Part shown: positions 10,042 to 27,860 of the stretch, piece after piece
How positions within the stretch are numbered: position 1 is the stretch's first letter
Layout: each line of letters opens with the position of its first letter
Source of the DNA: Deltaproteobacteria bacterium UBA5205
GTDB taxonomy: Bacteria; Desulfobacterota; Syntrophorhabdia; Syntrophorhabdales; Syntrophorhabdaceae
Assembly (NCBI GenBank): GCA_002412715.1
Contig: DHVP01000004.1
Span: forward strand, 8,707 to 72,706
Direction: 5' to 3'
Length of the DNA: 64,000 nucleotides
Position numbers and translations under genes: made by a program
Notes under the pieces: generated by a model
Databases searched by the model: none
Seen by the model: only the letters and a program-made list of their open reading frames with translations
What the model was told of the DNA's origin: nothing

Positions 10042-10089
10042 GCCGGTACCTCCATACCCCCGCCGGTGATCCCAACGTGTGGCGTTTTA

Positions 10090-10242: not shown

Positions 10243-10345
10243 TCCTAATGATATCACCGGCAAAGGAAACGAGTCAACGTTTTTCGGCGGGCATACATTT
10301 TGAAAATCCTTGATTATCCTCTTGTCGTCAGTATAAATACTAGCG

Positions 10346-10717: not shown

Positions 10718-10767
10718 AAGACGAAGAAACACGAAACTTTCAACCATTTCCCCCCCCTTTTCTCGGG

Positions 10768-10796
10768 TTGACTCTCCCGTCGATTTGGTTTAAAAC
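10768..10796 (+). promoter_or_regulatory. Candidate promoter for def-fmt (possibly leaderless)
   Basis: TTGACT (10768-10773), a 17-nt spacer, then TAAAAC (10791-10796). The def ATG is at 10802 with no Shine-Dalgarno upstream. Confidence 0.3.
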
Positions 10797-10801
10797 TTTA
10801 C

Positions 10802-11302
10802 ATGTCGACAATTGATATTCGTGTCATTCCCGACCCGGTGCTGAGGACGCAGTCAAAGCCGATTGAGAACATAACAGGCGAGCTTGTAAAGCTTACCGAT
10901 GACATGGTGGAAACCATGATCCTTGCTCATGGGGCGGGTCTTGCTGCTCCCCAGATCGGTTTTCCAATCCGGCTTATCGTCATAGACACGACGCTGAATC
11001 CCACGGAAAAAGAGCCCCTTATCCTTATCAATCCGCTCATTGTCGAGGCGCAACTCGAGGAGAACGGAGAGGAAGGGTGCCTGAGTGTTCCCGGTTACTA
11101 TGAGTATGTCAAAAGGGCAAAAAAGGTACTCGCGAGGGGTACCGGTCTCAAGGGCAAAACCATTGAGCTGGAATGCGAAGGCCAGCTGGCGCGGGCTCTC
11201 CAGCACGAGATCGATCACCTCAATGGAGTGCTTTTCATCGATCTGTTAAGTCCAATCAAAAAGAGCCTTTTCAAGAAGAAGTATTCCAGGAAAAATACAT
11301 GA
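10802..11302 (+). CDS. def: Peptide deformylase
   Basis: The three deformylase motifs are present: GLAAPQIG, EGCLSVPG and HEIDHLNG. Confidence 0.95.
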   Translation: MSTIDIRVIPDPVLRTQSKPIENITGELVKLTDDMVETMILAHGAGLAAPQIGFPIRLIVIDTTLNPTEKEPLILINPLIVEAQLEENGEEGCLSVPGYYEYVKRAKKVLARGTGLKGKTIELECEGQLARALQHEIDHLNGVLFIDLLSPIKKSLFKKKYSRKNT

Positions 11303-12225
11303 GGACGGTTTTTTTTGGGTCCTCGGGTTTTTCAGTTCCCGCCCTTCTGAAGATCAAAGATTCTGTTGTGGCCGTGGTGACCAAAAAAGCAAGACCTAAA
11401 GGCAGGGGTTACCAGACCGACGACAACGAGGTCAAGAGGGCGGCAGTACAGCTTGATTTGCCGCTTATCGAAATAGATTCTTTCAAAGATGACGAGGCGA
11501 AATCGATAGCCGATCATCGCCCCGATCTTTTTGTGGTAGTCTCCTTCGGGCTTATCGTCCCGAAATGGGCTCTCGATGTTCCGTCGATGGGACCGATCAA
11601 TATTCACCCGTCGCTCCTGCCTCTTTATCGGGGTCCGTCCCCGATGCAGTGGGCGTTGTTGAGTGGCGATAAGACAACCGGGATCACCTTCATCAGGATG
11701 AATGAGAAGATGGACGAAGGTGACATCATCTACCAGGAGCCGATCACCATAGAGAAGGATGACGATTACATCACGCTCTCGAAGAGGCTTTCCGAAAAGG
11801 CAGCAGACCGTCTTCCCGAAATAATCGATCGTATCGTTCGGAAAGGGGGCATGATAGAGAGGACCGTGCAGGATCATGCCATTGCCACCTATGCCCCGAT
11901 GATCACCAAGGAAATGGGCAAAATGGACTGGCAGCAAAGTGCCGCCCGGTTGGACTGTCAGGTGAAGGCGTTCGTGACCTGGCCTACGGCTTTCACGTAT
12001 CTTGATGGAAAGCTCTTGAAAGTGTTCTGTTCCTCGGTGGACGAGAGCGTTGAGGCGAAGGCCCCTGTCGGCACTATCGCGGGAGTCACCAAGGCAGGCC
12101 TTGAAGTAAGCACTGGCAAGGGTTTGCTCATCATCAGGGAGTTGCAGCTCGAAAATAAGAAACGCATGAATGCATACGATTTCTCCAGAGGATACCGTGA
12201 GTTACAAGACAAGTCATTGAATTAG
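11299..12225 (+). CDS. fmt: Methionyl-tRNA formyltransferase
   Basis: MRTVFFGSSGFSVP N-terminus and HPSLLPLYRGPSP motif. An ATGA overlap joins the def stop to the fmt start. The ORF track start at 11173 is an upstream extension. Confidence 0.95.
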   Translation: MRTVFFGSSGFSVPALLKIKDSVVAVVTKKARPKGRGYQTDDNEVKRAAVQLDLPLIEIDSFKDDEAKSIADHRPDLFVVVSFGLIVPKWALDVPSMGPINIHPSLLPLYRGPSPMQWALLSGDKTTGITFIRMNEKMDEGDIIYQEPITIEKDDDYITLSKRLSEKAADRLPEIIDRIVRKGGMIERTVQDHAIATYAPMITKEMGKMDWQQSAARLDCQVKAFVTWPTAFTYLDGKLLKVFCSSVDESVEAKAPVGTIAGVTKAGLEVSTGKGLLIIRELQLENKKRMNAYDFSRGYRELQDKSLN

Positions 12226-12248
12226 CTTTAAAAATAGCCATTTTTTTG

Positions 12249-12278
12249 TTGACAGAAAAGGCTTATAGCACATATCAT
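12249..12278 (+). promoter_or_regulatory. Candidate sigma70-type promoter for mltD
   Basis: TTGACA (12249-12254), an 18-nt spacer, then TATCAT (12273-12278), about 45 nt upstream of the ATG at 12325. Confidence 0.35.
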
Positions 12279-12324
12279 CAAGTAAGAACCACAGACAGAA
12301 TGCAGTACGGTAAATAAGGGGATC

Positions 12325-14112
12325 ATGAAAAAATATCTCGTGTTGACGGTTTTCGTTTTTCTTCTCGCTGGATGCGCAACATCCAATCATGTCGCCGTGC
12401 AGAATGTCAACGAACCTGCTGTGGCGGTCGCCCCTGAACAGCCCGCAGCGACCGGGTTCGGGTCGCCCGCTCTTTCAGAAACCGCCAGGAGTCCGGTTGC
12501 GAAGTCCCTGAAAACAAAAGCTATCGTCGCACAGACCCGGCAGAAGCAGGCAAAACAACTCCCATACGCGCTCGAAATGCAGGTCAAAGACGATGACGAT
12601 ATAACGAACCTGCTGACTCATGATTACAATAAGAATTTCGACATCCCCATCGTATTCAATGACGCCGTCAAGTATTATATAAAGTGGTTCTCGGAGGACA
12701 AGAAGAAGGTCTTCGCAGGTTGGCTGAAACGGTCCCGGCTTTACGTCCCTATTATTACCGAGATCCTCCGCGAAAAAGACATGCCGGAAGACCTTGTCTA
12801 TCTTGCCATGATCGAAAGCGGTTTCAACCCGAAGGCGTATTCCAGCGCAAAGGCATCAGGTCCATGGCAGTTTATCTATTCGACGGGCGGGCAATACGGT
12901 CTGGAAGTCGATTACTGGGTGGACGAAAGACGGGATCCCGAGAAATCGACGGTCGCCGCGGCCAAGTATCTCAAGAATCTGTTCGACCAGTTCGGGTGCT
13001 GGTACCTTGCCGCCGCAAGCTATAACGCCGGCGAGGGAAGAATAGGACGGCTGATTCAGAAGCATCAGACGAACGACTTTTGGGAATTATACAGATACAA
13101 TACGCTTCCCCGGGAAACGCGGGAATATATCCCTCAGCTTATAGCGGCTGCGATCATAGCGAAGGATCCGGCAAAATTCGGTTTCGGCAGTATTACCTAC
13201 GATCCCCCGATCAGGTTTGCCGAGGTGAGCGTACCCGCAGCCACACCGATCACGGCCATTGCGAAAGCGTCTTCAGTCGATATCGATCTTGTCCGAACCT
13301 ATAATCCCGAGCTCCTCAGGGGTATCACACCGCCGGGAACGAACGGCTATACAGTGAAACTGCCGTCCGGTGTTGACAAGGAGGCCTTTTACGGACGCCT
13401 TGAAACGGAACTTGAGGGAATTTCGACGATAAGAAGCGTTACCACGTACAAGGTAAGAAAGAAAGACAGCATGGCAGGGATCCTAAAGAAATACAATGTC
13501 AGGCAACAGGACCTGGTCCTGGTAAACTCCAGCGATAGCGAGCTCAGGATAAAGTCGGGAATGGTTATCGCCATACCAAAATTCTCCGGAGAGCCCGCGA
13601 GCCCTACCGTGCTTGCCAAAGGTGTTACGCAGGACCCTCCCGGCCCGAGCAAGACAAAAACTGCGGGGAAAGTGAAAGACGACGACGCCAGGCCGGCGAA
13701 ACCCGCGCCCATGAGAATCGCTAAAGCCGATAGGGCGGACCGCTCGGTCAGAGAAGCGCCTGTGCGCCCCGTCAAGGCCTTCCACGTTGTAAAAAAGGGT
13801 GAAACCCTTTCGGAGATCTGCGACCGCTACGGTATCGATGAGGACAGTCTGCGCTCGGCAAACAAGATCAGGGGCAACAGGGTCTATCCCAATATGAAGA
13901 TCCGCCTCGTGAGCCACGTTGAGCCAAAGAAGGCGGCTGTCGCGCCTGTGAGGACGAAAAAGGTCCGGTACCATACGGTAAAGAAAGGCGAAACGCTCAC
14001 TTCCATATCGGAAAAATATGGCGTTGATGTAGACGACCTGAAAACCGCCAACAGACTCAAAGGCAACAAGATCAACAAAAGCGCCAGATTGAAGATAGTG
14101 AAAGAAGGGTAG
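12325..14112 (+). CDS. mltD: Membrane-bound lytic murein transglycosylase D-like lipoprotein with three LysM domains
   Basis: Lipobox LLAGCAT and SLT catalytic region MIESGFNPKAYSSAKASGPWQF. Three LysM units begin YKVRKKDSMAGILKKY, HVVKKGETLSEICDRY and HTVKKGETLTSISEKY. Confidence 0.85.
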   Translation: MKKYLVLTVFVFLLAGCATSNHVAVQNVNEPAVAVAPEQPAATGFGSPALSETARSPVAKSLKTKAIVAQTRQKQAKQLPYALEMQVKDDDDITNLLTHDYNKNFDIPIVFNDAVKYYIKWFSEDKKKVFAGWLKRSRLYVPIITEILREKDMPEDLVYLAMIESGFNPKAYSSAKASGPWQFIYSTGGQYGLEVDYWVDERRDPEKSTVAAAKYLKNLFDQFGCWYLAAASYNAGEGRIGRLIQKHQTNDFWELYRYNTLPRETREYIPQLIAAAIIAKDPAKFGFGSITYDPPIRFAEVSVPAATPITAIAKASSVDIDLVRTYNPELLRGITPPGTNGYTVKLPSGVDKEAFYGRLETELEGISTIRSVTTYKVRKKDSMAGILKKYNVRQQDLVLVNSSDSELRIKSGMVIAIPKFSGEPASPTVLAKGVTQDPPGPSKTKTAGKVKDDDARPAKPAPMRIAKADRADRSVREAPVRPVKAFHVVKKGETLSEICDRYGIDEDSLRSANKIRGNRVYPNMKIRLVSHVEPKKAAVAPVRTKKVRYHTVKKGETLTSISEKYGVDVDDLKTANRLKGNKINKSARLKIVKEG

Positions 14113-14133
14113 AGAGAAGAAAAGAACCGTCTC

Positions 14134-14586
14134 TCAGACTTTCAGCACCAGGTTGATCATATCGCCGCGTGAAAAACCCATGGCGTGGAAGAACTGAAGA
14201 AGATCCCAATCGTTCCAGTTAACAAGAGTATATATAGTATCGACACTGTATTTCTGCAGGCTGTCGATAAGGCCTACTGCGAGAACTTTCGCAATACCCC
14301 TGTTCTGGTAATCCGGGTCGATGCCGATTGTGTCGATCCAGCCTATATTGTTGGGAACTTTGAACTCCCAACCACTGACCTCGCCAAGAATAAAGCCGGC
14401 CACCTTTCCATCAATTTCCGCTACCAGTGAGGCATCGGGGGGTCTATTCTCGGCCTGGTTTATAATTTTTGTGACCCAGTAATCTTTTCTGCTTTCGCCT
14501 AGAACCTTGGTATCGATTTCTACTATGGAGTCCAGATCACCCTTTGTCATCTGTCTCACGGATAGTTTGTCAAGAAAATTACTCAT
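14134..14586 (-). CDS. GNAT family N-acetyltransferase
   Basis: Acetyl-CoA binding motif IGIDPDYQNRGIAKVL. Start chosen at MSNFLDKLSVRQM; the ORF track extends to 14676. Confidence 0.75.
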   Translation of the reverse strand: MSNFLDKLSVRQMTKGDLDSIVEIDTKVLGESRKDYWVTKIINQAENRPPDASLVAEIDGKVAGFILGEVSGWEFKVPNNIGWIDTIGIDPDYQNRGIAKVLAVGLIDSLQKYSVDTIYTLVNWNDWDLLQFFHAMGFSRGDMINLVLKV

Positions 14587-14715
14587 TGTGGTTTTAACCT
14601 CGCTTGTACATTTTTTAACATAGTGCTGATATGGATTGCAAGAGAAAGATTGATCTTTAAGACATGAAACAGGCAATGTTATCGGAATGTTAGGAAGGAG
14701 AGTCTATTTTGTGGG

Positions 14716-15036
14716 TCAAAATGTCAGTCTTTCGACGGAAACGGCCTTGCCATGGGGAGGACCGGGTCTATGCGTCTTTGCTCTGTTTCTCTTCATTGCG
14801 GCTTTGCACTGCGGGCACAGAACCCCCGGACACTTCTCATCGACGGTGAATATTTCGCCGCACTGGTAGCACATCTCCTGGTTCCCGCTTCGCGTGGGGT
14901 AGTCGGGATAGATGCGATGGAGACATGTGGGCTTCGAACACACAAAGACTTTCACCGTGTTGCAGGCATCAAAATCGGGGTACATTTCCGAGCCGCAATG
15001 GGGGCAAGGGCTGGTGGGTGCTATTCTGTCGGTCAT
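14716..15036 (-). CDS. Cys-rich zinc-ribbon protein, function unknown
   Basis: 106 aa with paired CxxC motifs (CPHCGSE, CYQCGE, CPQC) and extra Cys pairs. I recognise no family. Confidence 0.5.
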   Translation of the reverse strand: MTDRIAPTSPCPHCGSEMYPDFDACNTVKVFVCSKPTCLHRIYPDYPTRSGNQEMCYQCGEIFTVDEKCPGVLCPQCKAAMKRNRAKTHRPGPPHGKAVSVERLTF

Positions 15037-16416: not shown

Positions 16417-16488
16417 GGTTTATCTTGCATGACCATTATACGCAAGAAGCCGACGACGAGTCAAGAAAGGTCGAGAAAACACAAAAAA

Positions 16489-16526
16489 ATAGGTCCTATA
16501 AGTCGTATAAGACCTATAGGACCTAT
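16489..16526. repeat. Palindromic intergenic repeat, copy 2 (12-bp perfect stem ATAGGTCCTATA-N14-TATAGGACCTAT)
   Basis: Shares a near-identical 30-mer with 9423-9452. Lies between the cyclase gene start and the end of the TPR lipoprotein gene. Confidence 0.7.
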
Positions 16527-16595
16527 TGAAAAACATCCAAAGCGCAGGCGCGGGTTTCCCGACCGTGTTTAAAGCCGAAGCGTCCGCGTTACCCC

Positions 16596-17231
16596 TTAAT
16601 TTGTAATAAACACCTTGTGTTTTTCCAGGATCTGTTTGAACTCTTTGCTCTTCCTGAGGTTGTTGATATCCGGGTCCTTTCTCAGGCTGTCGTAGTCGTT
16701 GAAACCCTTGGAAAGGGCCGCGTCGAGTTCGTCCAGACCGTAATCGGTGTTCCCCATAAGTGAATGAACGGAGGCGAGGTTGTACCGGATTGTCGCGCTG
16801 TCAGGTTTCAATTCCTTGGCTTTCTTGAGGTCGTCAAGTGCCTTGTTGTTCTTCTTCTGAAGCATGTAGGCCACTGCCCTGTTCGAATAGGCTTCGGCGT
16901 AGTTCGGGTCTTTGTTGATAGCGTTGGAGAATTCCGCGATAGCGTTGTCCAGGTTTTCGTTGAAGACGGACTTGGACGTGGCATTTTTCGCGATACTCAC
17001 ATAGCTCATACCCTGTTTCAGATGGGCCTTGACCTCCTGGCCCGGTCCCGATTCAGGTTTTTTGGCTTCGGGTCCGGCGGCTTCAGGTTTTTGCTCCTGT
17101 GCCTGCGGCGCGGGCTGCTGAGGCTCGGCCTTTGGCTGCGGTTTTGACCAGGGTAGCTTGTCGCATCCCATTCCCATAAGTCCCAGGGAAACCAGGACAG
17201 TTATGCTGACAACTGCAATCCATTTCCTCAT
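16596..17231 (-). CDS. TPR-repeat lipoprotein (last gene of the caspase operon)
   Basis: Lipobox LMGMGCDK, a Pro/Gln/Glu-rich linker, then TPR units (AEAYSNRAVAYMLQKKNNKALDDLKKAKELKPD). Confidence 0.75.
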   Translation of the reverse strand: MRKWIAVVSITVLVSLGLMGMGCDKLPWSKPQPKAEPQQPAPQAQEQKPEAAGPEAKKPESGPGQEVKAHLKQGMSYVSIAKNATSKSVFNENLDNAIAEFSNAINKDPNYAEAYSNRAVAYMLQKKNNKALDDLKKAKELKPDSATIRYNLASVHSLMGNTDYGLDELDAALSKGFNDYDSLRKDPDINNLRKSKEFKQILEKHKVFITN

Positions 17232-17264
17232 CTATCGATCCTCCTCCTTATTTAAATATCAAGG

Positions 17265-18512
17265 TTACTTTTTAATGCGCATGTTCCAGTTGTCGCTTGT
17301 TGCCATTGCCTGCGGCGTCTGACTGATCTCGGCGCCTTTCTCCTGTTTGACCCGTTGAGAGACAAGGGGTTTTGAATAGGTGAAGGCTTCTTTGACGGAA
17401 CCGTTGTACCTCTTCAATCCGTCAACAAAATAGTACGTGAAGACGCTGTTCTTGAGGCTGTCGGATTCCCAGGATTTCTCGCCTGCGCTGCTGGCGGACA
17501 GGAGTACTTTGCCGTAGCCGTCCTGGTTGTCGATACTCTTGCCGGCGCTGGCGGTCTTCTTCGGCGCTTCGTCGAGCACTATGTCTTTTGAGCCGAACAG
17601 TCGTTTCCCCTGGTCCTTTGAAATACCGTATCCCTCGTCCTCATCGGCCCCAAGAGACTTGCCTCCGGGAGGCAAAAAGCCCGGGATGGATCGGTAAGCA
17701 CCATTGCTGTAGCAGGTGTCAAGGATCATGACAAGCCGTTTGGCCCTCAGGCTCTCGACGAAGTCCTTGAGCATGTTTTCGGTCACGGCCGTATGCCAGA
17801 CGCGTTCGCGGGGCTTTACCTCCGTATCATAGGTCACGATATGGACGCCCCCGAACTTGTCGGGTGGCGTACCGTGGCTGCTCATGTAGATGACTACCAG
17901 GTCGTCGGGACCGGCAACGTTCTTGATTGTGTTGAGATATTTCATGATGTTGTCCCGCGTTGCGGTCTGGTCCGTAAGGTAATAGACGTTGCTCCGGGGG
18001 AATGCGGCTCCCTGGGGATTTACGATGAAGCTGTAGAAACTCGACGCATCCCTGACGGTGTATTGCAGCGTCTGAATACCATTTTTGAATTGTCCCACAC
18101 CGACAACAAGGGCGTAGCGGTTCCGTACTGAACCGGGTGCACCCTCAGACCCTGTTTCCTTGAGGACGCGGGCGCGGCTGAAAAGGCTCCCGATCCTCTT
18201 TTCCCATTCCTTTACCTTAATGTTGTCCGGTGTTACCGGTGAAACCCACTTGACCCCGACAACCGTCTGGGCGAGAGAGAAGGCAAGGTCGACCTGCCTG
18301 TCGTCCTCATAGCCCCCTTTCAGTTGAACCCGTCCGTATGAGTCAAGTTCAGCGAATCCATTTGCTATCCTGTTCTGTTTGAAACTGTTATTGATACCGT
18401 TCAGGTGGCCCTGGGTCACCGGTGAATTATCCGCAAAAAGGGAGTATTCTCCGGCCAGAAGAAAGACCAGGAGAAATGCACTTATTAATAATGATACGCG
18501 CGGTTTCATCAT
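17265..18512 (-). CDS. Secreted caspase-like cysteine protease (peptidase C14) with a BON-like N-terminal domain
   Basis: Signal peptide MMKPRVSLLISAFLLVFLLAG. BON-like RVQLKGGYEDDRQVDLAFSLAQTVVGVKWV. Caspase His/Cys pair in VIYMSSHGT and MILDTCYSNG. Confidence 0.8.
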   Translation of the reverse strand: MMKPRVSLLISAFLLVFLLAGEYSLFADNSPVTQGHLNGINNSFKQNRIANGFAELDSYGRVQLKGGYEDDRQVDLAFSLAQTVVGVKWVSPVTPDNIKVKEWEKRIGSLFSRARVLKETGSEGAPGSVRNRYALVVGVGQFKNGIQTLQYTVRDASSFYSFIVNPQGAAFPRSNVYYLTDQTATRDNIMKYLNTIKNVAGPDDLVVIYMSSHGTPPDKFGGVHIVTYDTEVKPRERVWHTAVTENMLKDFVESLRAKRLVMILDTCYSNGAYRSIPGFLPPGGKSLGADEDEGYGISKDQGKRLFGSKDIVLDEAPKKTASAGKSIDNQDGYGKVLLSASSAGEKSWESDSLKNSVFTYYFVDGLKRYNGSVKEAFTYSKPLVSQRVKQEKGAEISQTPQAMATSDNWNMRIKK

Positions 18513-18514
18513 CC

Positions 18515-19348
18515 CTACCTCATGACGGACCTGCCGGCCGTTTTCTGAAGCATCGAAACCTCTTCGATAACGAGTACAGTCTCGACGCGGTATGATCCCG
18601 GCTGATTCACGAGGGCGTGGATACGGTCGGTGTTGGGTACGAAAGTTGTTGCCTTCCGGACGGTGAGTTCGCGCTCTATCATATCCGATTTGCCTTCGGC
18701 GTTGACGATAAAAGCGATCTTGTACCGGCCTTCAGGTACGTCCTTGGGGATATCGAAGTTGCCGTCGGCGGTCCTGGTACCCGGAGCAGCGGTAACCTGC
18801 TGATCTACCTGTCCCAGATCCACGAATTCATTCTTGGACGGATCGAAGTACTTGACGATACGGGTCTCCGTCACCTTTATTTCAGTGCGATCGGGTGGCG
18901 CCATCACATAGTAGGAGCCGTTCAGCTTCACGGAACCGCCCTGGCCGACCGATGCCGGACTCACGTTAAAGCTCTGGATCTTTACAACTTCTCCCTGGGA
19001 CTGGTTGTAGCCAACCTTCCGGGCTGTTTCCTGATACCCCGCGGCAGGCTGACTCTTCAGTGTCGAATACAGCGAAAGGCATTTGCCCCAGGCGTAAGCG
19101 AACCCTATACCGCCCCCGATTGCGGCGCCGATACCGGCCCCCTTCCAATCTCCACCGATTAGTCCACCGATAAGGGCACCGCCGAGGGCTCCTCCAACGG
19201 TATGGAGGGCTATACATTGATTTCTCGCTCTGATGCGGTCTTCTTCGGTCTTTATGTCATCGGGGTTGGGCAGCATTGAAGCACAGGAGTAGAGAAAAAA
19301 CACCCCGATGAGTGCAATCGCGTATAGTCTTACCCGGTTTTTCTTCAT
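18515..19348 (-). CDS. Glycine-zipper lipoprotein, function unknown
   Basis: Lipobox FFLYSCAS and glycine zipper GGALGGALIGGLIGGDWKGAGIGAAIGGGIG, followed by a beta-rich C-terminal domain. Separated from the caspase start by 2 nt. Confidence 0.7.
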   Translation of the reverse strand: MKKNRVRLYAIALIGVFFLYSCASMLPNPDDIKTEEDRIRARNQCIALHTVGGALGGALIGGLIGGDWKGAGIGAAIGGGIGFAYAWGKCLSLYSTLKSQPAAGYQETARKVGYNQSQGEVVKIQSFNVSPASVGQGGSVKLNGSYYVMAPPDRTEIKVTETRIVKYFDPSKNEFVDLGQVDQQVTAAPGTRTADGNFDIPKDVPEGRYKIAFIVNAEGKSDMIERELTVRKATTFVPNTDRIHALVNQPGSYRVETVLVIEEVSMLQKTAGRSVMR

Positions 19349-19363
19349 GTCTTTAGTCTCTCC

Positions 19364-20227
19364 TTATCTGTGGTTCAACTTGATTTCGAGGGTGAGGATC
19401 TTGCCGTCCTCTATGTAGGATGCAGGCACAACGCCGAAATTTTCGCCCCCACGGGATTCAAGAACGATGTCTTTTTTGCCCTTGGGCTCAGGTTTCCAGC
19501 CGTTTTTCGGCGAGATAACCGAGTAGCTCGTTCTGTTCGAATCTTCAAGCGTGATGTCCTTGCCGCCTGCCAGAGATGCCGTCATGACTCCGGGGGGAGG
19601 GGGCGGCGGGATGTTTGCCACGTCTGCCTGTCCGGGAGGCGGCGGGGGAGGAAGTGCTGCACTTGCGTCGGCCACAGGAGGCGCTGACGGTGCCTGTGCC
19701 ATGGTCTGGCCACCCTGCACGGGCGCTCCCATGGGGTTCGGGCTTCCCGAGAGCATAACAAGGAGCTTTTCCGTGCCGGGGGCTCCGGAGAACCTGAAAT
19801 TCCCGGCCTTGGGGATCTCTACCATGCTGCCCGGCTCTGCCTGTTCGCTGTAAAGAACTGTAGTATTACCCGAGGTCCCTATGTTCATTATCGTAAGATA
19901 ACCAGGTTTGTTGGTCCTGACGAGAAGTTTCAGCCGTTCGCCGGAACGGAATGTCCTGGACCGGGGAACGATATCGAACCTGCCGTCGTCGCGAAGAAGA
20001 ACAAGTTTGTAGGAGATGCCGACATACTTTTCCTTTGCCGGAGCCGCCGCCGTCTGGGTGGCAGGTTTTACCGACCCCGAGCCTGAAGACATCCGAACCG
20101 CGGGGCCTTCGCCGCTGTCAAAGATGGCTTTTGCTCCTGTCGGCGCTTTTGTCTGGGCCTGGGCGCCGGAACATACGACAAGGATTGTTACAAGAACAAC
20201 GATCAAGATTGAAGGCAATGATTTCAT
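19364..20227 (-). CDS. Secreted DUF4384-like domain protein with proline-rich linker
   Basis: Signal peptide ending CSGAQAQ. DUF4384-like FRSGERLKLLVRTNKPGYLTIMNIGTSGNTTVLYS (recognised from memory of the family). Two PPPPPP tracts. First gene of the operon. Confidence 0.65.
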   Translation of the reverse strand: MKSLPSILIVVLVTILVVCSGAQAQTKAPTGAKAIFDSGEGPAVRMSSGSGSVKPATQTAAAPAKEKYVGISYKLVLLRDDGRFDIVPRSRTFRSGERLKLLVRTNKPGYLTIMNIGTSGNTTVLYSEQAEPGSMVEIPKAGNFRFSGAPGTEKLLVMLSGSPNPMGAPVQGGQTMAQAPSAPPVADASAALPPPPPPGQADVANIPPPPPPGVMTASLAGGKDITLEDSNRTSYSVISPKNGWKPEPKGKKDIVLESRGGENFGVVPASYIEDGKILTLEIKLNHR

Positions 20228-20333: not shown

Positions 20334-20363
20334 AGTATAACTACAACCCCGAAATTTTGTCAA
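20334..20363 (-). promoter_or_regulatory. Candidate sigma70-type promoter for the caspase operon
   Basis: On the minus strand: TTGACA (20363-20358), an 18-nt spacer, then TATACT (20339-20334). This gives a leader of about 100 nt to the start at 20227. Confidence 0.4.
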
Positions 20364-20420: not shown

Positions 20421-20450
20421 TTGACAATCCATGCGTCTCACCGATATATT
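20421..20450 (+). promoter_or_regulatory. Candidate sigma70-type promoter for the 2057-aa protein gene
   Basis: TTGACA (20421-20426), an 18-nt spacer, then TATATT (20445-20450). The leader contains an AAAGGCAAA...TTTGCCTTT hairpin (20457-20499). Confidence 0.4.
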
Positions 20451-20568: not shown

Positions 20569-23500
20569 ATGCGCATTCCAGGATCGTTGAGAACGAAATT
20601 TTCAGCGTCAATTCTTTGTCTTTTTCTTCTTTTACCAGCCTTGCTTTTCGCCGTATCCGTTCCGCCGCAAACGCTTGTCAGCAATGCGATGGATGGCGTT
20701 CTCCTGGACATGGGCAATCCCTTTCTCAAGGTCATCAAACAGGGATCATGGATATCGGGTGAGAAGTACCGCAACCCCCTGACGAATCTCCTCGATCCTT
20801 CCGACCACGACGCACGGTTGTTCATTTCGCTCGACGATGTGCCGCCCGAGCGGGCCCGGGAGGTTTGGAAGGCCTACCAGGGACGCCTCAGGAAGAAGAT
20901 ATTCGCGATGGCGCAGAACGCGGGGTACAGCACGGATGAGATACAATTACTCCTCAAATCGGTCAACTTCTATCCCCCCTCACAACTCCTGAAGGGAATA
21001 GGGCAGAATGAAGAGGCGATCGCCAAATTCCTGAAGATGGGCAACTACCCCAACCTCCTGGAAGTTGGTGAAGAGGCGGCGGAGGGGCTCTATACGACGC
21101 CCACGAAGTTCATCCGCCAGGGCTACGAGACAGGGGCACGAGTCCAGGTCGCAGAGCTTGCCGCCGACGAGGGATCGGACGCATATCGCATTGTACACAA
21201 GGCGACCGCCGAGGCGGAGCACGCGGCGGAGGTAGTCGGTGAGGCCAACCTCAAAGGATATGTGCAATCCGCGGAGTACTCTCTGAACGAGGCGCAGAAG
21301 GCGTTAAACGAGGGCAAGCTCGATACCGCGAAGAAGAACCTTCAGCGGGCGAAGGACCGCATGAAAAGCGCCCGGAAACTTGGCGGGGTCAGCGCCGAGG
21401 GCGGTGCCGTAAAGGAACTCGACGCACTGGAGAGCCAGGTCGATGATGCCATCAAGCTTGCCTTTGAATCAGCGGACGATGCGAAGGCAATGCTTGGCAA
21501 GACGAAGCAGCTGGCAAACAAGCTTGGCGGTGAGGTCATGAAAAAGACCAGCGTCGACCTTGCTGCCCTGGAGGCGATGGGGCTCAAGAATTCGGTGAAG
21601 CAACGCGCATTCCTCAAAGGAGTTCTGGAGGGGGAGGGCAAGTGGGCGACGCTCAGGGTGAATCTTGAAGAGGCATCGGGCAGCGCGCTGACGACCCTGC
21701 GAAGCGGTGCCAGGCTGGCCTATAAAAACTGGTTCATGTCGCTTATCGCCCTGTGGGAGCTCAAGGAGTTCCCGGCAGCAATTGAAAAGGAGGGCGTAGC
21801 CAAAGCGAGCGCCCGGCTGGCGGCGACCGTCGCAGGCCTTATAAACCCGACCTTCGGTTATGCCCAGCTTTTCAGCGTGATCTTCATGACCACCGGGGAA
21901 CTTCTCGTGGACTGGATCAGCTCCTACGGCTACGTCGCCGTTGTGGGCAGACAGGACTGCATGGACCTCATCGCCGGTATCTACACGGTCCCCGGAAGGG
22001 AACAGAACATCGAAGGGAAAGAATGTGAGCAGATCCAGAGTGACGGGCAACTCGCGTGCCGGATCTACGATTCGAAGGGACTCAGGAGAGATCTGGCGGC
22101 GGGACGGAAGTTCAACCAGGAACTGATACCGCCTTTCATGATCTCCCTTCTGAACTGCCATGCGAAGGCGGCATCGAAACACTACGACGACTACGAATCC
22201 ATGCACGATGAGGGTGTTCAGCAGGCCCTGGTCAACAAGTGCCTCCAGCCGGTCCTGAAGACCTGGCTCGACAGCCGCCAGCTTGTTGTCAACGAGGTAG
22301 ACGCGCTGCGTCAGGGCATGGAGGAGCAGTCCGTGAGGGTCATGGCCGCTCCCTCCCGTTTGAAGGAGAAGGGTACGGTGAGGCTCTCCGCGGACGATTC
22401 ATCGAGCATTGCGGGGATCGAGAGGGACATCGAGGAGAAGGCAAAGTGCCTTGGCGGGGTCCATGCAAAACCCCGTTCGGGCCGCGACTATATATGGACG
22501 GTGAACGGCAGGGAGTTCAGGAAGGATTACAACAGGAACACCGCCGAGCTTTCCCTCGATACGCCCGGCAGCTACGAGGTGTGTGCCGCCGTTCACTATA
22601 CGTGGCGCATCGACGGTCTCCCCATCGTTTCACTGGAGGACGGGCTCTCGGGCAAGGGGGTCAGGACAGGGTGTGTGACGGTGGTCGTTGAGCTGCCGCC
22701 CGATGAGAAGAAGCCTGAGGATGCGAAGAAACCCGAGACCCCACCACCCGCCGACCCTCTCACCAGTGTGAAGAAAGAGCCTCCAGTGGACGTAAAAAAG
22801 GCGCCGCCGACATGCTCCTACGAATATTCCGCCTGGGGCGAATGCGGCCGGGAGACGAAGAAACAGACGCGAACGGTGACGGCGAAGAAGCCCGAAGGCT
22901 GCGTGGAAAAGAGCAAGCCATCGCTCGAACAGGGGTGTACTCCGCCTCCGACGAAAAGTGAACTGGATTCCCGGTATTACAACTGCCTTTGCCGCTGTTA
23001 CTCCGGCTGGGCGGGACACATCGGCGTATGGTGGGACCCTGAAGGGAAGTCCATACCGGAGGCCCCGAGCAGCGGTCCCTGTTTCGGCGGGGCTGGAGCC
23101 TTCGGTGCTACGAGAAGGCATGGCTTCGGGCCTCCCAACGATTGCGCCAAAGGATGCTGGGAAGGCGCCTACGGTAAGGGGACCTGGGACCAGAAGAAAG
23201 CCGATGAAATGAGAAGGGAAGAGAACAAGAAGCACAAGAAACCTCTCAAGGTAAAGCTCAACGCATCGAAGAACCCTGCTGATTTTGGCGATATCGTGAT
23301 CCTTACCGCGGAGGCGATCGACGGGACCGCAGGATACAAATATACGTGGGGCGGCTGTGCGCAGGACGCGAAGGACAACAAGGCGAAGGTACTCAACAGC
23401 ATGCAATGCAAGCCCTGCACGGCATCCGTTACCGTAACGGACCAGGATGATGAAAGCGCTTCCGCCTCCGTCACGATCCAGTGTACCGCTCTTAAGGTGA

Positions 23501-26500
23501 AGCTCACCAAGGAGAGCCCGAAGGAAGACGCTATCCCCATCGGCGGCAAGGCCACGTTCCGAGCCGAGGTTTTCTCCGGCGACAAGCCGGCGAGCGGTTC
23601 ATTCACCTACCTCTGGGAGCGGAACCCCGACGTGCTGTTCGGCGACCCAAAGAACCCGAAATATGAGACCACAGGGGGTTCCACGGCGCGGAACTCCGCT
23701 TCTTTCGGAAAGCCGGCAGCGACTCCGGTGTGGGTCGTGGTGCTGCGCGAGGTCGAAGGGCGCAAGATGACCGTCGGCGAGTCGGAGAGGATCATGATCC
23801 AGGTGGTCAAGCCCAAACTGAGCCTCAAGGCCGAGCCACAGGACCCGCTTGTCGGCCAGCAAGTGAAGATCACCCTCACCGAGGAACCGAAACTGGATGA
23901 TCAGACGGTCTCCTATTGGTGGGAGATAGCGGGCAACACGCAAAACTCAGGACCCGAGAGGGACCAGCGCATTTACACATACAAACCGAAAGATGACAAG
24001 CCCGTGACGGTCACCGTTCACGCGAAGGCGAAGGATGGTGGAGAGGAGATCGGCGTCGAGAAGATCACCATCTCCGCGAAGAAACCGACTGTTACCGTGA
24101 CGGGCCCGAAGATAGCCGGGCCGCCCCCCATGATCTGGAAGGAAGGCGTCGGGCTCGTGCCGGCGGACCGCCAGATAGCCGAACATCAGCGCGTGGAGTT
24201 TTCTGTCGCGGTGACCCCTGCTGGCGCCCAGCAGTTGCGCTACCAGTGGACAGTTGCACCCGAGGGGTGCAGCATCTCCGCCCCCTCTTCAAAGGAAACG
24301 GGTGTGACGTGCAGCAAGACCGGTGCCTATACGATGACCTGTGCGGTGAAGAGCGCCGAGGGCGCCGACCTCGGCAGCGGCACGGGATCGTTGAGCGTCA
24401 CCATATCCCAGTCCGATATGTCGGGGGCCAAGAAGAAGGATGAGGCGAAAAAGAAGCTCGATTCAGCGAAACAGCTCTGGTCCCAGAAGAAATACGACGA
24501 AGCGATTGCTGCGGCCGAGGCAGCGGCGCAGGTCGATCCCAAGCTTGCCGCGCCCGTCCTTAACCAATTCTCCCAGGAACTGAAGAAGATGGGTTGGGAC
24601 GCCCTGAACAAGGCTGACCACACGGAAGCAATAAAACGTCTTGAGCAGGCAGTGAAGTTGAACCCCGCCGATGCCGACGCAAAGAAGAAGCTGGAGGAGG
24701 CGAAGAAGTATGCCGCAGTGTGGCCGCGCGTCGAGGCAAAGGCAAAGGAATTCGACGCCTTTATCGCCCAGAAGAAGGTATGGTCGGCGCAGAAGGCAAT
24801 GCTCGAGATGCAGGACATACTGCGCGGCCAATCCGGCGGCCAGTCGTCGACGAATCCCCTCTGGACCAGGGTGATGGCGGATTTCAACAAGGGGGTTGCC
24901 TGGTACAACGATTTTTCTCAGAAGAGCAACGCCGAGTGGACCAGACTTTTCAAGGCTGAGGACTGGGAAAAGGCCGAAGCGCATATCAAGCAAGTCATGA
25001 CACAGGAGCTTTCTCCTGCCGACCAGAAACATTATGCATCCGCCCTCCAGACGACGCAGACGATGCTCGGGATGAAAAAAGAATCGATGCAGTACTACGA
25101 GACTGCAAAGGCCAATTTCGTGAAAGGCCAGCCCGCCGACGCCAACGGACTTGCCGCCGTCGCGAAGGAACTCAGGAACAAGGCGGCACGATTCAAGGAA
25201 GGCGACGCCCGGCGCACGCAGATCACGGAGCTTGCGGCGGCGATGGAGAAGAAGCAGAAGGGTGTCAACGCAAAGGCATACGCACAGAGCTTCTTCAACA
25301 ACGGCGATCAGTATTACCGTTCGAACAATTTCGAGCCTGCCGTGAAGCAATATGACGAGGGGCTTAAAGCCATCAGGGAAAACGGAGACGTGAAGGATCC
25401 GGACTACGCAAAGTATATGAAGCTCCGGGAAGACGCTGCTCAAAAGGACAAGCGTTTCAAGGAGCTTTACGCATACGCCGCAGGGCTTGCCGCAACCACG
25501 AAGCCCCTTGACGAAGAAACCATTAAGAAGGGCATAGCCTCGGCCGAAGAGGGGCTCAAGATCCGTCCTCGCAACGGCGATATGGAGATCCACTGGAACA
25601 AGCTGAAGTGGAAGCTCGGCGAGCTGAAGAACGCCATTGCAAAGAAACAGGATGAGCAGCGTAAGTGCGAGGCGAAGTGGATCGAGGGCCAGGCGCTTTA
25701 TAATGCCGGGAAACACCCCGAGGCCCTGGCGAAGTTCAAGGAGAACATGGCCTGCGCACCGGGGAACAAGGAACGCGAGACGTATATCCGGCAGCTCGAG
25801 GATGCTCTCAGGAAACAGGTGGCCGCCAAACAGGCATGTCTTGCGCTAAGACAGCAAGGCGACGCCTTCGTGCAGCAGAAACAATATGCCGCGGCGGTGA
25901 CAAAATACCGGGAGAGTTTGAAATGCCAGCCCGACCCGAAGCTGGAGGCCTATATACGCCAGCTCGAAGGCGAGATGAAAAAGCAGGCCGATGCCCAGGC
26001 AAACGCAGCGCGAGCTACTCAATTGCGCGCTGAAGGCACCCAGCTGCAGAATCAGAAACGCTATGCCGACGCCATCGCGAAATACCGGGAAAGCCTGCGT
26101 TATCTCCCGGACAAGGCGTTGGAACAGCACATCGTTCAACTGGAAGGGCAGCTCAAGAAAATGAATGACCAGCAGGCAGTACAGACCCGCGCGAAAGCGC
26201 TGCGTGATGAAGGCGCGTCGCTTCAGAAGCAGAACAAAGTCCGCGACGCCATCGCCAAATACCGGGAGAGCCTGAGGTATGTGTCCGACCCGCAACTGGA
26301 GGCCCACATCGTCAAACTCGAGTCAAGTCTGAAATCGACTCCGGCCGCCCCGACATCGAGCCCGACAACAGCCGCGACGGGAAGCCAGGCGTCGGCTGCA
26401 GCTGGTTCCTGGGCAGGCACCTGGAAGAGCGTGGCCGGTCCCGAGGGTGAGACGATCAACTTTGTACTTACTTCGAGCGGTAACCGCATTAACGGCACCT

Positions 26501-26742
26501 TTTCCGTTGCCGTCCCTTACAAAACTTCCTCGGGTGCACGCAAGACGGAGACGCTTGGCGGCCCCCTGGAGGGAACCGTGTCGGGCAACAGGGCGAAAGG
26601 CACCTTTCGCGAATCCAGTGACGCAAAACACGCAGGGACCTTTGATTTTATCATGGCATCCGGCGGCAACCAGTTCAGCTGTACCGTACGGGCCACCGAT
26701 GGTGGAGACAGCAGGTCCTATACGGTGCGACGGACGAAGTGA
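20569..26742 (+). CDS. Giant secreted multidomain protein (2057 aa): unknown N-terminal region, Cys-rich module, PKD/Ig-like repeats, TPR-like modules, C-terminal beta domain
   Basis: RBS GGAAGGGAG and signal peptide ILCLFLLLPALLFA. Four Ig-like units carry a Y-x-W signature (YKYTWGG, FTYLWERN, VSYWWEIAG, LRYQWTVAP). The C-terminal half has many TPR-like helices. Confidence 0.85.
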   Translation: MRIPGSLRTKFSASILCLFLLLPALLFAVSVPPQTLVSNAMDGVLLDMGNPFLKVIKQGSWISGEKYRNPLTNLLDPSDHDARLFISLDDVPPERAREVWKAYQGRLRKKIFAMAQNAGYSTDEIQLLLKSVNFYPPSQLLKGIGQNEEAIAKFLKMGNYPNLLEVGEEAAEGLYTTPTKFIRQGYETGARVQVAELAADEGSDAYRIVHKATAEAEHAAEVVGEANLKGYVQSAEYSLNEAQKALNEGKLDTAKKNLQRAKDRMKSARKLGGVSAEGGAVKELDALESQVDDAIKLAFESADDAKAMLGKTKQLANKLGGEVMKKTSVDLAALEAMGLKNSVKQRAFLKGVLEGEGKWATLRVNLEEASGSALTTLRSGARLAYKNWFMSLIALWELKEFPAAIEKEGVAKASARLAATVAGLINPTFGYAQLFSVIFMTTGELLVDWISSYGYVAVVGRQDCMDLIAGIYTVPGREQNIEGKECEQIQSDGQLACRIYDSKGLRRDLAAGRKFNQELIPPFMISLLNCHAKAASKHYDDYESMHDEGVQQALVNKCLQPVLKTWLDSRQLVVNEVDALRQGMEEQSVRVMAAPSRLKEKGTVRLSADDSSSIAGIERDIEEKAKCLGGVHAKPRSGRDYIWTVNGREFRKDYNRNTAELSLDTPGSYEVCAAVHYTWRIDGLPIVSLEDGLSGKGVRTGCVTVVVELPPDEKKPEDAKKPETPPPADPLTSVKKEPPVDVKKAPPTCSYEYSAWGECGRETKKQTRTVTAKKPEGCVEKSKPSLEQGCTPPPTKSELDSRYYNCLCRCYSGWAGHIGVWWDPEGKSIPEAPSSGPCFGGAGAFGATRRHGFGPPNDCAKGCWEGAYGKGTWDQKKADEMRREENKKHKKPLKVKLNASKNPADFGDIVILTAEAIDGTAGYKYTWGGCAQDAKDNKAKVLNSMQCKPCTASVTVTDQDDESASASVTIQCTALKVKLTKESPKEDAIPIGGKATFRAEVFSGDKPASGSFTYLWERNPDVLFGDPKNPKYETTGGSTARNSASFGKPAATPVWVVVLREVEGRKMTVGESERIMIQVVKPKLSLKAEPQDPLVGQQVKITLTEEPKLDDQTVSYWWEIAGNTQNSGPERDQRIYTYKPKDDKPVTVTVHAKAKDGGEEIGVEKITISAKKPTVTVTGPKIAGPPPMIWKEGVGLVPADRQIAEHQRVEFSVAVTPAGAQQLRYQWTVAPEGCSISAPSSKETGVTCSKTGAYTMTCAVKSAEGADLGSGTGSLSVTISQSDMSGAKKKDEAKKKLDSAKQLWSQKKYDEAIAAAEAAAQVDPKLAAPVLNQFSQELKKMGWDALNKADHTEAIKRLEQAVKLNPADADAKKKLEEAKKYAAVWPRVEAKAKEFDAFIAQKKVWSAQKAMLEMQDILRGQSGGQSSTNPLWTRVMADFNKGVAWYNDFSQKSNAEWTRLFKAEDWEKAEAHIKQVMTQELSPADQKHYASALQTTQTMLGMKKESMQYYETAKANFVKGQPADANGLAAVAKELRNKAARFKEGDARRTQITELAAAMEKKQKGVNAKAYAQSFFNNGDQYYRSNNFEPAVKQYDEGLKAIRENGDVKDPDYAKYMKLREDAAQKDKRFKELYAYAAGLAATTKPLDEETIKKGIASAEEGLKIRPRNGDMEIHWNKLKWKLGELKNAIAKKQDEQRKCEAKWIEGQALYNAGKHPEALAKFKENMACAPGNKERETYIRQLEDALRKQVAAKQACLALRQQGDAFVQQKQYAAAVTKYRESLKCQPDPKLEAYIRQLEGEMKKQADAQANAARATQLRAEGTQLQNQKRYADAIAKYRESLRYLPDKALEQHIVQLEGQLKKMNDQQAVQTRAKALRDEGASLQKQNKVRDAIAKYRESLRYVSDPQLEAHIVKLESSLKSTPAAPTSSPTTAATGSQASAAAGSWAGTWKSVAGPEGETINFVLTSSGNRINGTFSVAVPYKTSSGARKTETLGGPLEGTVSGNRAKGTFRESSDAKHAGTFDFIMASGGNQFSCTVRATDGGDSRSYTVRRTK
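25663..26334 (+). repeat. Four tandem ~56-aa TPR-like modules inside the giant gene
   Basis: Repeating unit ..A..YRESL(K/R)(C/Y).PD..LE..I.QLE..LKK. The similarity is visible at DNA level (aaataccgggagag... occurs three times). Confidence 0.75.
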
Positions 26743-26885
26743 CGGGAACAGCGGCGGGCGAATTATTCCGGATGCGCAAGCAGGGAAGTTATGCACAGGA
26801 AAGACCGGCCGATAACATCAAGACCAGGGAATGATGCCGGGAATTTCCGGTCACCCCGGTATGTTAAATCATGAGGAGGCCCCCG

Positions 26886-27857: not shown

Positions 27858-27860
27858 GCA

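Follow-up and report, generated by a model that had tools for sequence, protein, structure and literature searches.

Results

Organization and conservation of the gene cluster

The stretch of DNA analyzed here, 64,000 nt of contig DHVP01000004.1 from Deltaproteobacteria bacterium UBA5205 (subsequently designated the window), carries a cluster of four open reading frames at positions 16596-20227. All four are located on the minus strand, and we named them A, B, C and D in the order of transcription. A encodes a predicted exported protein with a DUF4384 domain, B a glycine-zipper lipoprotein, C a caspase-family protease with a BON-like N-terminus, and D a lipoprotein with TPR repeats. Spacers of only 15, 2 and 33 nt separate the genes. 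A preliminary description of this DNA had reported four co-directional minus-strand genes with this spacing, which proved exact, and the peptide motifs quoted therein were all recovered. The gene for a 2057-aa secreted protein, designated G, lies divergently from A. Coordinates of all features are compiled in Table 1.

To place the cluster in a wider context, related loci were collected by a pattern scan using one genome per species. This yielded 55 loci, and synteny among them was counted from tblastn searches. All of the matches stem from metagenome-assembled genomes. They derive from Syntrophorhabdaceae, Syntrophales and Desulfatibacillum, from Nitrospirota (Thermodesulfovibrionales and Dissulfurispiraceae) and from Burkholderiales and other Pseudomonadota, and therewith span Desulfobacterota, Nitrospirota and Burkholderiales. 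A, B, C and D are colinear on one strand in 43 of the 45 loci for which enough flanking DNA was available. The exceptions are L045, where the flank is short, and L052, where the caspase gene is disrupted. Hence, the four-gene order, whose inspection across genomes had been suggested in the preliminary description, is conserved in three phyla. Independent gene calls gave the same A-B-C-D order in L056, L057, L059 and L060. The best protein match is 99% identical and stems from Syntrophorhabdaceae, the group to which the window itself belongs, and one further protein match carries the source name Tectomicrobia, its placement being by name only. The DNA flanking the loci varies by lineage and encodes ordinary housekeeping functions.

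A few loci deviate from the common picture. A frameshift splits gene A of L010, and the caspase gene of L052 is disrupted or truncated; either could reflect a faulty assembly or the decay of the module in some lineages. L055 (JAWCMS010000009.1) is labelled 'Candidatus Pacearchaeota archaeon' and carries the 3' part of a caspase gene together with genes for two lipoproteins that have bacterial lipoboxes, one with TPR repeats and the other of the M48-TPR type. Most likely, this is a mis-binned bacterial contig.

Additional genes accompany the cluster in some lineages. In the Syntrophaceae-type locus L012 (positions 9967-14783, plus strand), and likewise in L014, L016 and L017, D is followed by the gene for a secreted DUF6438 protein (E 3e-29) and further on by genes for a BepA-like lipoprotein combining Peptidase_M48 with TPR repeats, a 241-aa unknown protein and an SLT lytic transglycosylase. 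These neighbors represent an envelope-maintenance context. The most divergent versions of the module, L051 (3884-6916, plus strand) and L058 (4183-7407, plus strand), contain a Tubulin_2 gene (PF13809) inside the cluster, with E-values of 3.5e-64 and 6.2e-60, respectively. The Tubulin_2 protein has no signal peptide; in L058 its gene is preceded by that of a 107-aa multi-pass membrane protein and the protein bears a double zinc ribbon at its end. The window and all remaining loci lack a Tubulin_2 gene. Its presence in L051 and L058 hints that the periplasmic set may be tied to a tubulin-like GTPase in the cytoplasm. The wider context of the module is consistently the cell envelope.

Protein C belongs to the caspase family C14

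Protein C matches Peptidase_C14 (PF00656) with a score of 66.4 bits (cutoff 21.4; E 3.9e-18), and the match extends over residues 132-402, corresponding to positions 2-226 of the 233 positions of the profile. In the alignment with AtMC4 from Arabidopsis and Yca1 from yeast, residues His213 and Cys267 fall on the catalytic dyads of these enzymes. In an alignment of 107 C sequences sharing 45-92% identity, Asp155, His213, Asp265 and Cys267 are invariant and Ser211 is conserved in at least 90% of the sequences. Thus, the His-Cys pair of caspase/metacaspase type, which had been noticed in the preliminary description, is backed by a significant family match and coincides with the catalytic residues.

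Metacaspases possess an acidic S1 pocket, which in TbMC2 is provided by Asp95 and by Asp211 at the position Cys-2 (PMC6426788). For AtMC4, the paper on this enzyme names Asp137 at Cys-2 and Ser84 at His-2 as residues of the pocket. The corresponding residues of C are Asp155, the equivalent of Asp95 in TbMC2, Ser211 at His-2 and Asp265 at Cys-2. Since the acidic pocket of the metacaspase type is kept, C probably cleaves after Lys or Arg, and it is predicted to be active as a protease.

An AlphaFold2 (AF2) model of C, built from the alignment of 107 sequences, reached a pLDDT of 89.3 and a pTM of 0.86. When this model was compared with known structures by Foldseek, the best matches were metacaspases, the paracaspase MALT1 and GSU0716 (E 1e-10 to 1e-7, probability 1.00). 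Taken together, sequence, dyad and fold identify C as a member of family C14, and its pocket places it on the metacaspase/orthocaspase side of this family.

The N-terminal domain of C is more difficult to assign. It had been described as BON-like in the preliminary description. The protein of the window gave no match to the Pfam BON family (PF04972) even at E<=10, but 11 of 16 C homologues have weak matches (best E 1.2e-3), and a profile of the domain retrieved OsmY (8rjx) as its best match in the PDB (E 5.5e-4). In the AF2 model, helix 34-46 is followed by strands 52-56 and 62-68, helix 71-85 and strand 98-100. This alpha-beta-beta-alpha-beta order fits a BON domain, and pLDDT exceeds 90 over most of it. 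The Foldseek matches of the model are dominated by the caspase domain and do not bear on its N-terminus. We therefore regard the BON-like identity as plausible, though not established; it is the weakest of the labels given to the module.

A short motif is shared by protein A and the linker of C

Comparison of the proteins encoded by the cluster revealed an eight-residue motif, G-x-K-D-[IL]-V-x-E, that occurs once in the linker between the p20 and p10 parts of C and twice in the C-terminal domain of A. The alignment of A gives it the broader form G-x-K-D-[IL]-[VIMT]-x-[ED]. Two copies are present in 46 of 50 A homologues and one copy in 52 of 55 C homologues, and within the C linker Lys309 is conserved in at least 90% of the sequences. 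D and G were searched as well and contain no copy. When 741 kb of DNA were scanned in all six frames with the strict motif, 152 matches were obtained, every one of which is located inside an A or a C gene.

The copies in A and C also change together. In 28 loci all three copies have Ile after Lys-Asp, in 14 loci all three have Leu, and only 4 loci are mixed. When mapped onto a tree of C, the all-Leu loci fall into at least three separate clades. Of the five conserved Ile columns in C, the one within the motif is the only one that flips completely. We considered that this co-variation might be an artefact of GC content and rejected this explanation, as the all-Leu loci include ones with a GC content of 0.38-0.46 and the all-Ile loci reach 0.64. 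Further joint changes are seen in L045 and L046, where the terminal acidic residue of the motif is replaced by Val (KDLV-x-V) in A and C alike, and in L054, which has KDLVAE in both proteins.

An alignment of profiles by hhalign matched the first motif of A with the linker motif of C (probability 86.7, E 4.4e-6) over 18 columns. We also considered a larger domain common to A and C, for instance a mimic of a p10 strand, and dismissed it because the hhalign match ends after these 18 columns. As judged from the sequences, the likeness of A and C is that of a short linear motif and not of a shared domain. The data point to A as the closest functional partner of the protease, which had not been recognized in the preliminary description. 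As the same motif co-evolves in A and C, both proteins would therefore see a common binding site.

All four products of the cluster are predicted to be exported

Export signals were judged by comparison of the N-termini over the 55 related loci, taking into account sequence patterns and their conservation. By this measure all four products appear to be exported and the signals are conserved across phyla. The N-termini of A and C invariably progress from a basic to a hydrophobic segment and then to a small-x-small site, as is typical for Sec-type signal peptides, regardless of the lineage. In contrast to these, B and D carry the Cys of a lipobox in nearly every lineage, B of L051 being a case without it. 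Export of all four products had also been predicted in the preliminary description; however, the sequence '..CSGAQAQ' of A, which was listed there among signal peptides and lipoboxes, is a site for signal peptidase I and no lipobox.

The residue following the lipobox Cys (position +2) is Asp or Glu in D of most lineages and Ala, Gly, Thr or similar in B. In E. coli, Asp at this position is a signal for retention of lipoproteins in the inner membrane. The Cys content of the proteins is also distinctive. Mature C has a single Cys, which is the catalytic Cys267, B has an invariant pair and G has 30. These numbers would fit an oxidising compartment.

Features of proteins A, B and D

Protein A matches DUF4384 (PF14326) at residues 92-163 with 40.6 bits (cutoff 27), and all 17 A homologues tested also match this family, with a best E-value of 2.8e-14. 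The DUF4384-like domain of the preliminary description is thereby placed above the Pfam cutoff. That description had singled out three points on which it could fail, namely the matches to C14 and DUF4384, the alignment of the dyad and the conservation of gene order; all three were examined, and the matches are significant, the dyad is in register with the catalytic positions and the order is kept.

A near-invariant stretch, GAKAIFDSGEG (residues 31-41; GAKA[IL]FDSG across the related loci), is located at the predicted mature N-terminus of A; Gly31, Ala32, Lys33, Phe36, Asp37, Ser38, Gly39 and Gly41 are invariant in it. The pattern K-x-[ILV]-F-[DE]-[STAG]-G is present in the A gene of the window and of 48 fetched loci. 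The idea that the GAKAIFDSG motif recurs in the giant proteins was rejected, because only one match was found outside A genes, in the giant of L056, and this one is probably incidental. The C-terminal domain of A, which contains the two copies of the motif shared with C, was found in 34 clusters among 1.84 billion representatives, nearly all of them A-sized proteins or fragments. Three long outliers in this deep search are unrelated repeat proteins and were discarded as spurious.

For B, a glycine zipper had been proposed. The protein of the window remains below the Pfam cutoffs of the two relevant profiles (PF05433 and PF13441), scoring 19.0 against a cutoff of 24.2 and 21.1 against 28.9, but 17 of 17 family members tested match Rick_17kDa_Anti (PF05433, 'glycine zipper 2TM'), with a best E-value of 7.6e-8. 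The glycine-zipper assignment thus holds at the level of the family, as far as profile matches can tell. Cys45 and Cys90 flank the zipper, and we infer that they form a disulfide. The C-terminal beta-rich domain of B (residues ~95-235) gave no above-threshold family match. Some B homologues, i.e. those of L019, L024, L039 and L045 and the one encoded at L058:1484-2542, carry a C-terminal bacterial SH3 domain (SH3_3/SH3b, E-values down to 7e-14). They are mostly from Nitrospirota, and B of the window has no SH3 domain. Its occurrence suggests an optional anchor to the cell wall or to a ligand. Profiles of A and B compared with PDB sequences returned no useful match.

Protein D matches TPR_11, TPR_1 and TPR_2 above the cutoffs (TPR_11, E 8.6e-16; TPR_END_plus, E 4.7e-21).

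A proposed extracytoplasmic proteolytic module

We propose that A, B, C and D constitute an extracytoplasmic, membrane-tethered proteolytic operon centered on the orthocaspase-like protein C, in which the linker of C would be self-processing or autoinhibitory, A would be a substrate or pseudosubstrate, and B and D would serve as anchors. Judged from sequence, we consider the chances of this proposal to be about even. We infer every step beyond the common binding site of the motifs in A and C. The most economical candidate for this site would be the substrate cleft of C, because the motif of C is located where C14 enzymes are processed, contains a near-invariant Lys and would meet an acidic S1 pocket. 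Lys309 would then act as the P1 residue for self-processing, for autoinhibition or for both. According to the AtMC4 paper, Lys225 in the linker of this enzyme is inserted between the two catalytic residues; there it obstructs the active site, and self-cleavage occurs at this Lys first. Similarly, the orthocaspase MaOC1 needs autoprocessing for activity. Protein A would present two copies of the same site to C, so that it might be a dedicated substrate or a pseudosubstrate regulator.

In this proposal the complex would be held at the membrane by the BON-like domain of C and by lipoprotein B, which is probably located in the outer membrane as its +2 residue is Ala or Gly. D, with Asp at +2, is probably retained in the inner membrane and could reach into the periplasm by means of its Pro-rich linker, providing a docking scaffold. 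G, where present, or the proteins replacing it in individual lineages might be scaffolds or clients. The likely theme would be surveillance or remodelling of the cell envelope rather than cytoplasmic cell death or phage defence.

A more far-reaching version would see an extracytoplasmic proteolytic switch, in which C is kept inactive by its linker and wired to A, whose two copies of the linker motif would act as decoy or trigger, and in which the two lipoproteins suspend the assembly between the membranes. We offer this version tentatively and regard it as doubtful. If true, it would be the first mechanistic model of an envelope-resident bacterial caspase system, acting for example as a sensor of envelope damage or as a controller of a giant periplasmic or surface scaffold, and the DUF4384 proteins that so frequently accompany bacterial proteases would for the first time be given a role.

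Several points weigh against a proteolytic module of this kind. The localization of the proteins is deduced from sequence patterns and their conservation, and the +2 sorting rule is that of E. coli and may not apply in these phyla. In the periplasm of the aerobic Burkholderiales hosts the catalytic Cys would be exposed to oxidation. The BON assignment is below threshold for the protein of the window. The linker of C is modelled by AF2 with moderate pLDDT (51-76) and includes a short strand at residues 312-313. Exchange of Ile for Leu is conservative, and the independent co-switches are few (~3). Finally, the would-be P1' position of the motif is occupied by an invariant Asp, for which no precedent was found in the literature surveyed, and this residue could signal a structural or a docking role.

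Indeed, the motif might be a docking peptide for a common receptor in the module, most plausibly D through its TPR domain or B through its beta-sandwich, assembling a multivalent envelope complex while the substrate of the protease is to be sought elsewhere. Exclusive occurrence of the motif in A and C and its co-variation would suit any common binding partner equally well, and linkage to the set is as tight for D as for A and B. TPR domains typically bind short, extended, acidic peptides. Electrostatic docking would be favored by the acidic end of the motif and by the invariant Asp behind the Lys, the latter being at least as compatible with docking as with cleavage, and in the AF2 model part of the motif forms a beta strand. 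However, the motif of C resides exactly at the processing place of C14 enzymes, with a near-invariant Lys matched to the acidic S1 pocket, and we consider docking instead of cleavage rather improbable. The two readings are compatible with each other.

The giant protein G is a frequent but facultative neighbor

Protein G starts with a signal peptide, followed by 620 residues without annotation, a Cys-rich stretch resembling thrombospondin-type repeat (TSR)/pleiotrophin sequences, PKD/Ig repeats, TPR repeats and a C-terminal domain of ~120 residues. Searches of Pfam and the PDB identified only TPR, PKD and a sub-threshold segment similar to PTN_MK_C, and the first 620 residues remained without match. 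The Cys-rich segment (positions 22790-22940; residues ~740-790; 'CSYEYSAWGEC...QTRTV...C...C') has sub-threshold similarity to the C-terminal, TSR-like domain of pleiotrophin/midkine. A pleiotrophin chain among the PDB sequences was likewise matched below threshold. The segment is found again at residues ~1395-1440 of the giant of L056 and is kept in giants of other phyla. It resembles a thrombospondin-type repeat, an uncommon feature in bacteria.

A G-like gene is present within 8 kb of the core in 31 of the 55 loci, in varied positions. It is divergent and upstream in Syntrophorhabdaceae, and follows D directly on the same strand in several loci of Nitrospirota and Burkholderiales. In L056 and L057, A, B, C, D and G are all located on one strand, and the giants of 2991 and 2178 aa, respectively, are 53-60% identical to G over long stretches. 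In L059 and L060 the core is present with no giant near it. As the position of G changes and the linkage is kept, a functional tie is supported, and G can be regarded as a frequent, facultative partner of the module. The partnership with the giant suggested in the preliminary description therefore stands, with the restriction that it is not obligatory.

These findings raise the possibility that C is a maturation or release protease for G in the manner of LapG and LapA, with A, B and D as regulators or anchors. Linkage of G-like genes to the core in three phyla and at differing positions, the co-directional arrangement with similar giants in L056 and L057, and the signal peptide, the many Cys residues and the Lys/Arg-rich composition of G are all in line with this. 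However, the four-gene core without a nearby giant in L059 and L060, and the replacement of G by other proteins in Syntrophaceae-type loci and by the cytoplasmic tubulin-like protein in L051 and L058, speak against it. Moreover, G is devoid of the motif shared by A and C, no genes for an outer-membrane translocator or type I secretion were seen beside G in the window, and the LapG family is unrelated to that of C. We therefore consider it unlikely that G is the raison d'être of the protease.

Downstream of G on the same strand (26871-29219) are two genes, one encoding a 328-aa protein without Pfam match and the other a 452-aa protein that bears TPR repeats in its C-terminal part and shows weak similarity to Wzy_C_2. 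They may be co-transcribed with G.

Predicted boundaries of the transcription unit and neighboring genes

A candidate sigma-70-like promoter, TTGACA-18-TATACT, is located ~107 nt upstream of the start codon of A. It was identified by its match to the consensus alone, and the overall count of such sites does not exceed the shuffled expectation. At the other end, a terminator-like hairpin directly follows D and likely marks the 3' end of an A-D transcript, setting it apart from the next gene on the strand, which encodes a predicted cyclase-like, cyclic nucleotide monophosphate (cNMP)-binding protein. This gene has a promoter-like site of its own and is kept beside the module in close relatives only. 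Hairpin, separate promoter-like site and limited conservation together delimit the predicted transcription unit to A-D. The cNMP-binding protein was considered as a member of the module and rejected on these grounds. The N-terminal half of this 417-aa protein is weakly nucleotide-cyclase-like (Guanylate_cyc, E 1e-3) and probably degenerate, and the protein matches Pycsar-type PADLOC models via its cNMP domain alone.

Given this neighbor, and given that C matches the generic PADLOC 'caspase' model (47 bits) and the NCBIfam model caspase_w_EACC1 (NF047832, 72 bits), an anti-phage or conflict system with a caspase effector (gasdermin-activating proteases, NLR/STAND-caspase or EACC1-associated systems) might be envisaged, but this is very improbable and the module is none of the known defence systems: all four products are predicted to be exported while the described systems are cytoplasmic, no NTPase, sensor, gasdermin or effector domain is present, A, B, D and G have no match in PADLOC-DB v2, the EACC1 score is far below the cutoff of 140, the flanks consist of housekeeping genes and not of defence islands, and the cNMP gene lies past the terminator-like hairpin with its own promoter-like site and is restricted to close relatives.

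Scans of the window with Rfam and for tRNAs returned no match and no tRNA, respectively. Further downstream, at ~36000-64000, the GC content falls from ~0.58 to 0.41-0.49, and the plus strand carries an island of surface-polysaccharide genes. Its products include a UDP-glucose dehydrogenase, a GHL10 + laminin-G protein, a Wzy-type O-antigen ligase/polymerase-like protein, two GT4 glycosyltransferases, an asparagine synthase, a GFO/IDH oxidoreductase fusion, a heparinase II/III-like protein and an 808-aa TPR protein.

Table 1. Features of the A-D cluster and its surroundings (positions refer to the window)
Feature	Position	Strand	Basis
Gene A, predicted exported DUF4384 protein, 287 aa	19364..20227	-	PF14326 match, E 2.8e-10; conserved signal peptide
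A, predicted Sec-type signal peptide, aa 1-24 (cleavage ...SGAQA/Q)	20156..20227	-	Kyte-Doolittle core 2.62; AxA-type site conserved in homologues
A, near-invariant motif GAKAIFDSGEG, aa 31-41, predicted mature N-terminus	20105..20137	-	alignment and pattern scan
A, DUF4384 beta domain, aa 92-163	19739..19954	-	PF14326
A, proline-rich linker, aa 164-214, two PPPPPP tracts	19586..19738	-	length and sequence differ widely among lineages
A, motif copy 1, GGKDITLED, aa 221-229	19541..19567	-	G221, K223, D224 invariant
A, motif copy 2, GKKDIVLES, aa 250-258	19454..19480	-	G250, K252, D253, E257 invariant
Gene B, glycine-zipper lipoprotein with C-terminal beta-rich domain, 277 aa	18515..19348	-	family-level profile matches
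B, predicted lipoprotein signal peptide, lipobox Cys22 (FLYS/C, +2 Ala)	19283..19348	-	comparison of N-termini
B, glycine zipper, aa 45-90, invariant Cys45 and Cys90 at ends	19079..19216	-	alignment, PF05433 family matches
Gene C, predicted exported BON-like/caspase-family (C14) protease, 415 aa	17265..18512	-	PF00656, dyad, fold model
C, predicted Sec-type signal peptide, aa 1-27 (cleavage ...SLFA/D)	18432..18512	-	comparison of N-termini
C, BON-like N-terminal domain, aa 34-100	18213..18413	-	profile against PDB, AF2 secondary structure
C, caspase/metacaspase domain, aa 132-402	17307..18119	-	PF00656, alignment, Foldseek
C, S1-pocket Asp155	18048-18050	-	aligned to Asp of metacaspase C-x-N-D
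C, catalytic His213	17874-17876	-	SSHGT, aligned to metacaspase SGHGT
C, catalytic Cys267	17712-17714	-	DTCYS, aligned to metacaspase DSCHS
C, motif GSKDIVLDE, aa 307-315, p20-p10 linker	17568..17594	-	G307, K309, D310 at least 90% conserved
Gene D, TPR lipoprotein, 211 aa	16596..17231	-	TPR profiles, lipobox
D, predicted lipoprotein signal, aa 1-24, lipobox Cys23 (GMG-C23, +2 Asp)	17160..17231	-	lipobox conserved
D, Pro/Ala/Gln-rich linker	17034..17159	-	sequence
D, TPR repeats	16623..17006	-	TPR profiles
Candidate sigma-70-like promoter of A (TTGACA-18-TATACT)	20334..20363	-	11/12 consensus matches
Terminator-like hairpin, 17-bp stem and T-run, directly 3' of D	16488..16527	-	consensus scan only
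Candidate sigma-70-like promoter of G	20421..20450	+	11/12 matches, consensus only
Gene G, 2057-aa secreted protein, divergent from A	20569..26742	+	signal peptide, domain scans, 30 Cys
Gene for cyclase-like/cNMP-binding protein, 417 aa	15163..16416	-	next on strand, 179 nt beyond D

Discussion

To our knowledge, caspase homologues are widespread in bacteria but almost none has a known function, and the few that were studied act in the cytoplasm, in the control of toxin-antitoxin systems or in defence. The module described here is a clean and conserved exported version of such a protein with a fixed set of partners. Through the motif shared by A and C, a group of hypothetical exported proteins is turned into a specific question: does C cleave itself and A after the Lys of the motif? 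If so, this would provide a first functional context for DUF4384, reveal how a caspase-fold enzyme is controlled in the periplasm and open the question which envelope process is governed. If not, the module would still be a well-defined and phylogenetically broad envelope complex. In either case the finding would overturn nothing.

Some elements of this picture are already known. A survey from 2012 counted prokaryotic caspase homologues with a likely N-terminal signal peptide or with extracellular domains (PMC3501461), and the premise of the preliminary description that bacterial caspase homologues are cytoplasmic is in this respect incomplete. DUF4384 beside protease or kinase domains is likewise known. 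In contrast, the four-gene operon, the BON-like fusion, the pair of lipoproteins, the link to a giant and the A-C motif were not found described. In the literature searched, which left most subscription journals outside, there was no fixed four-gene envelope caspase operon with two lipoprotein partners, no BON-caspase fusion, no metacaspase combined with a glycine zipper, no pairing of Tubulin_2 with a caspase, no link of a caspase to a giant secreted protein and no protease linker motif common to a DUF4384 protein.

Comparison with known systems

Several characterized systems resemble parts of the module. The BON envelope proteins OsmY and DolP are comparable with the N-terminal domain of C, which matches OsmY best by profile and has the alpha-beta-beta-alpha-beta order in the model, but it falls below the Pfam thresholds.

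The LapG-LapA pair is comparable by analogy only, as it combines a periplasmic Cys protease with a giant secreted repeat protein encoded nearby. LapG is from a protease family unrelated to C14, and LapA uses a type I secretion system. Here, in contrast, neither the LapG family nor type I secretion is found, and G is a facultative neighbor.

With outer-membrane lipoproteins of the SlyB/YfgH/17-kDa-antigen type, B shares a lipobox followed by a segment of the glycine-zipper 2TM type. We know of no functional tie of SlyB-type proteins to a protease. B differs from them by the Cys pair around the zipper and by an additional beta-rich domain of 140 aa, sometimes also by an SH3b domain, and the protein of the window is below the Pfam cutoffs. 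Members of the SlyB-type group are reported to stabilise the outer membrane under envelope stress.

The orthocaspases, among them MaOC1 of Microcystis and GSU0716 (PDB 3bij), are bacterial C14 proteases with Arg/Lys specificity, and GSU0716 is a fold match of C. MaOC1 reportedly cleaves an antitoxin. Unlike C, for which export is predicted, the characterized members are cytoplasmic.

The type II metacaspase AtMC4 (PDB 6w8s/6w8r) is the best PDB sequence match of C and also among its top fold matches. Both enzymes have the His/Cys dyad, an acidic pocket with Ser at His-2 and Asp at Cys-2, and a conserved Lys in the linker. However, identity is only ~12-16% in fold alignments, and the linker of C comprises ~60 residues, whereas AtMC4 has a large helical domain at this place. 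Moreover, C is predicted to be exported and begins with a BON-like domain, and AtMC4 is not known to have a partner bearing its linker site.

Finally, DUF4384 has repeatedly been described together with protease or kinase domains, i.e. in caspase-DUF4384, trypsin-like/p20-DUF4384 and Ser/Thr kinase-DUF4384 proteins, and also in one group of Csx30 C-terminal domains of type III-E CRISPR systems. The pairing with a protease is kept in the module, here in the form of two adjacent genes. In contrast to the multidomain proteins, A is a separate protein, predicted to be secreted, with a C-terminal domain of its own that carries the linker motif of the protease.

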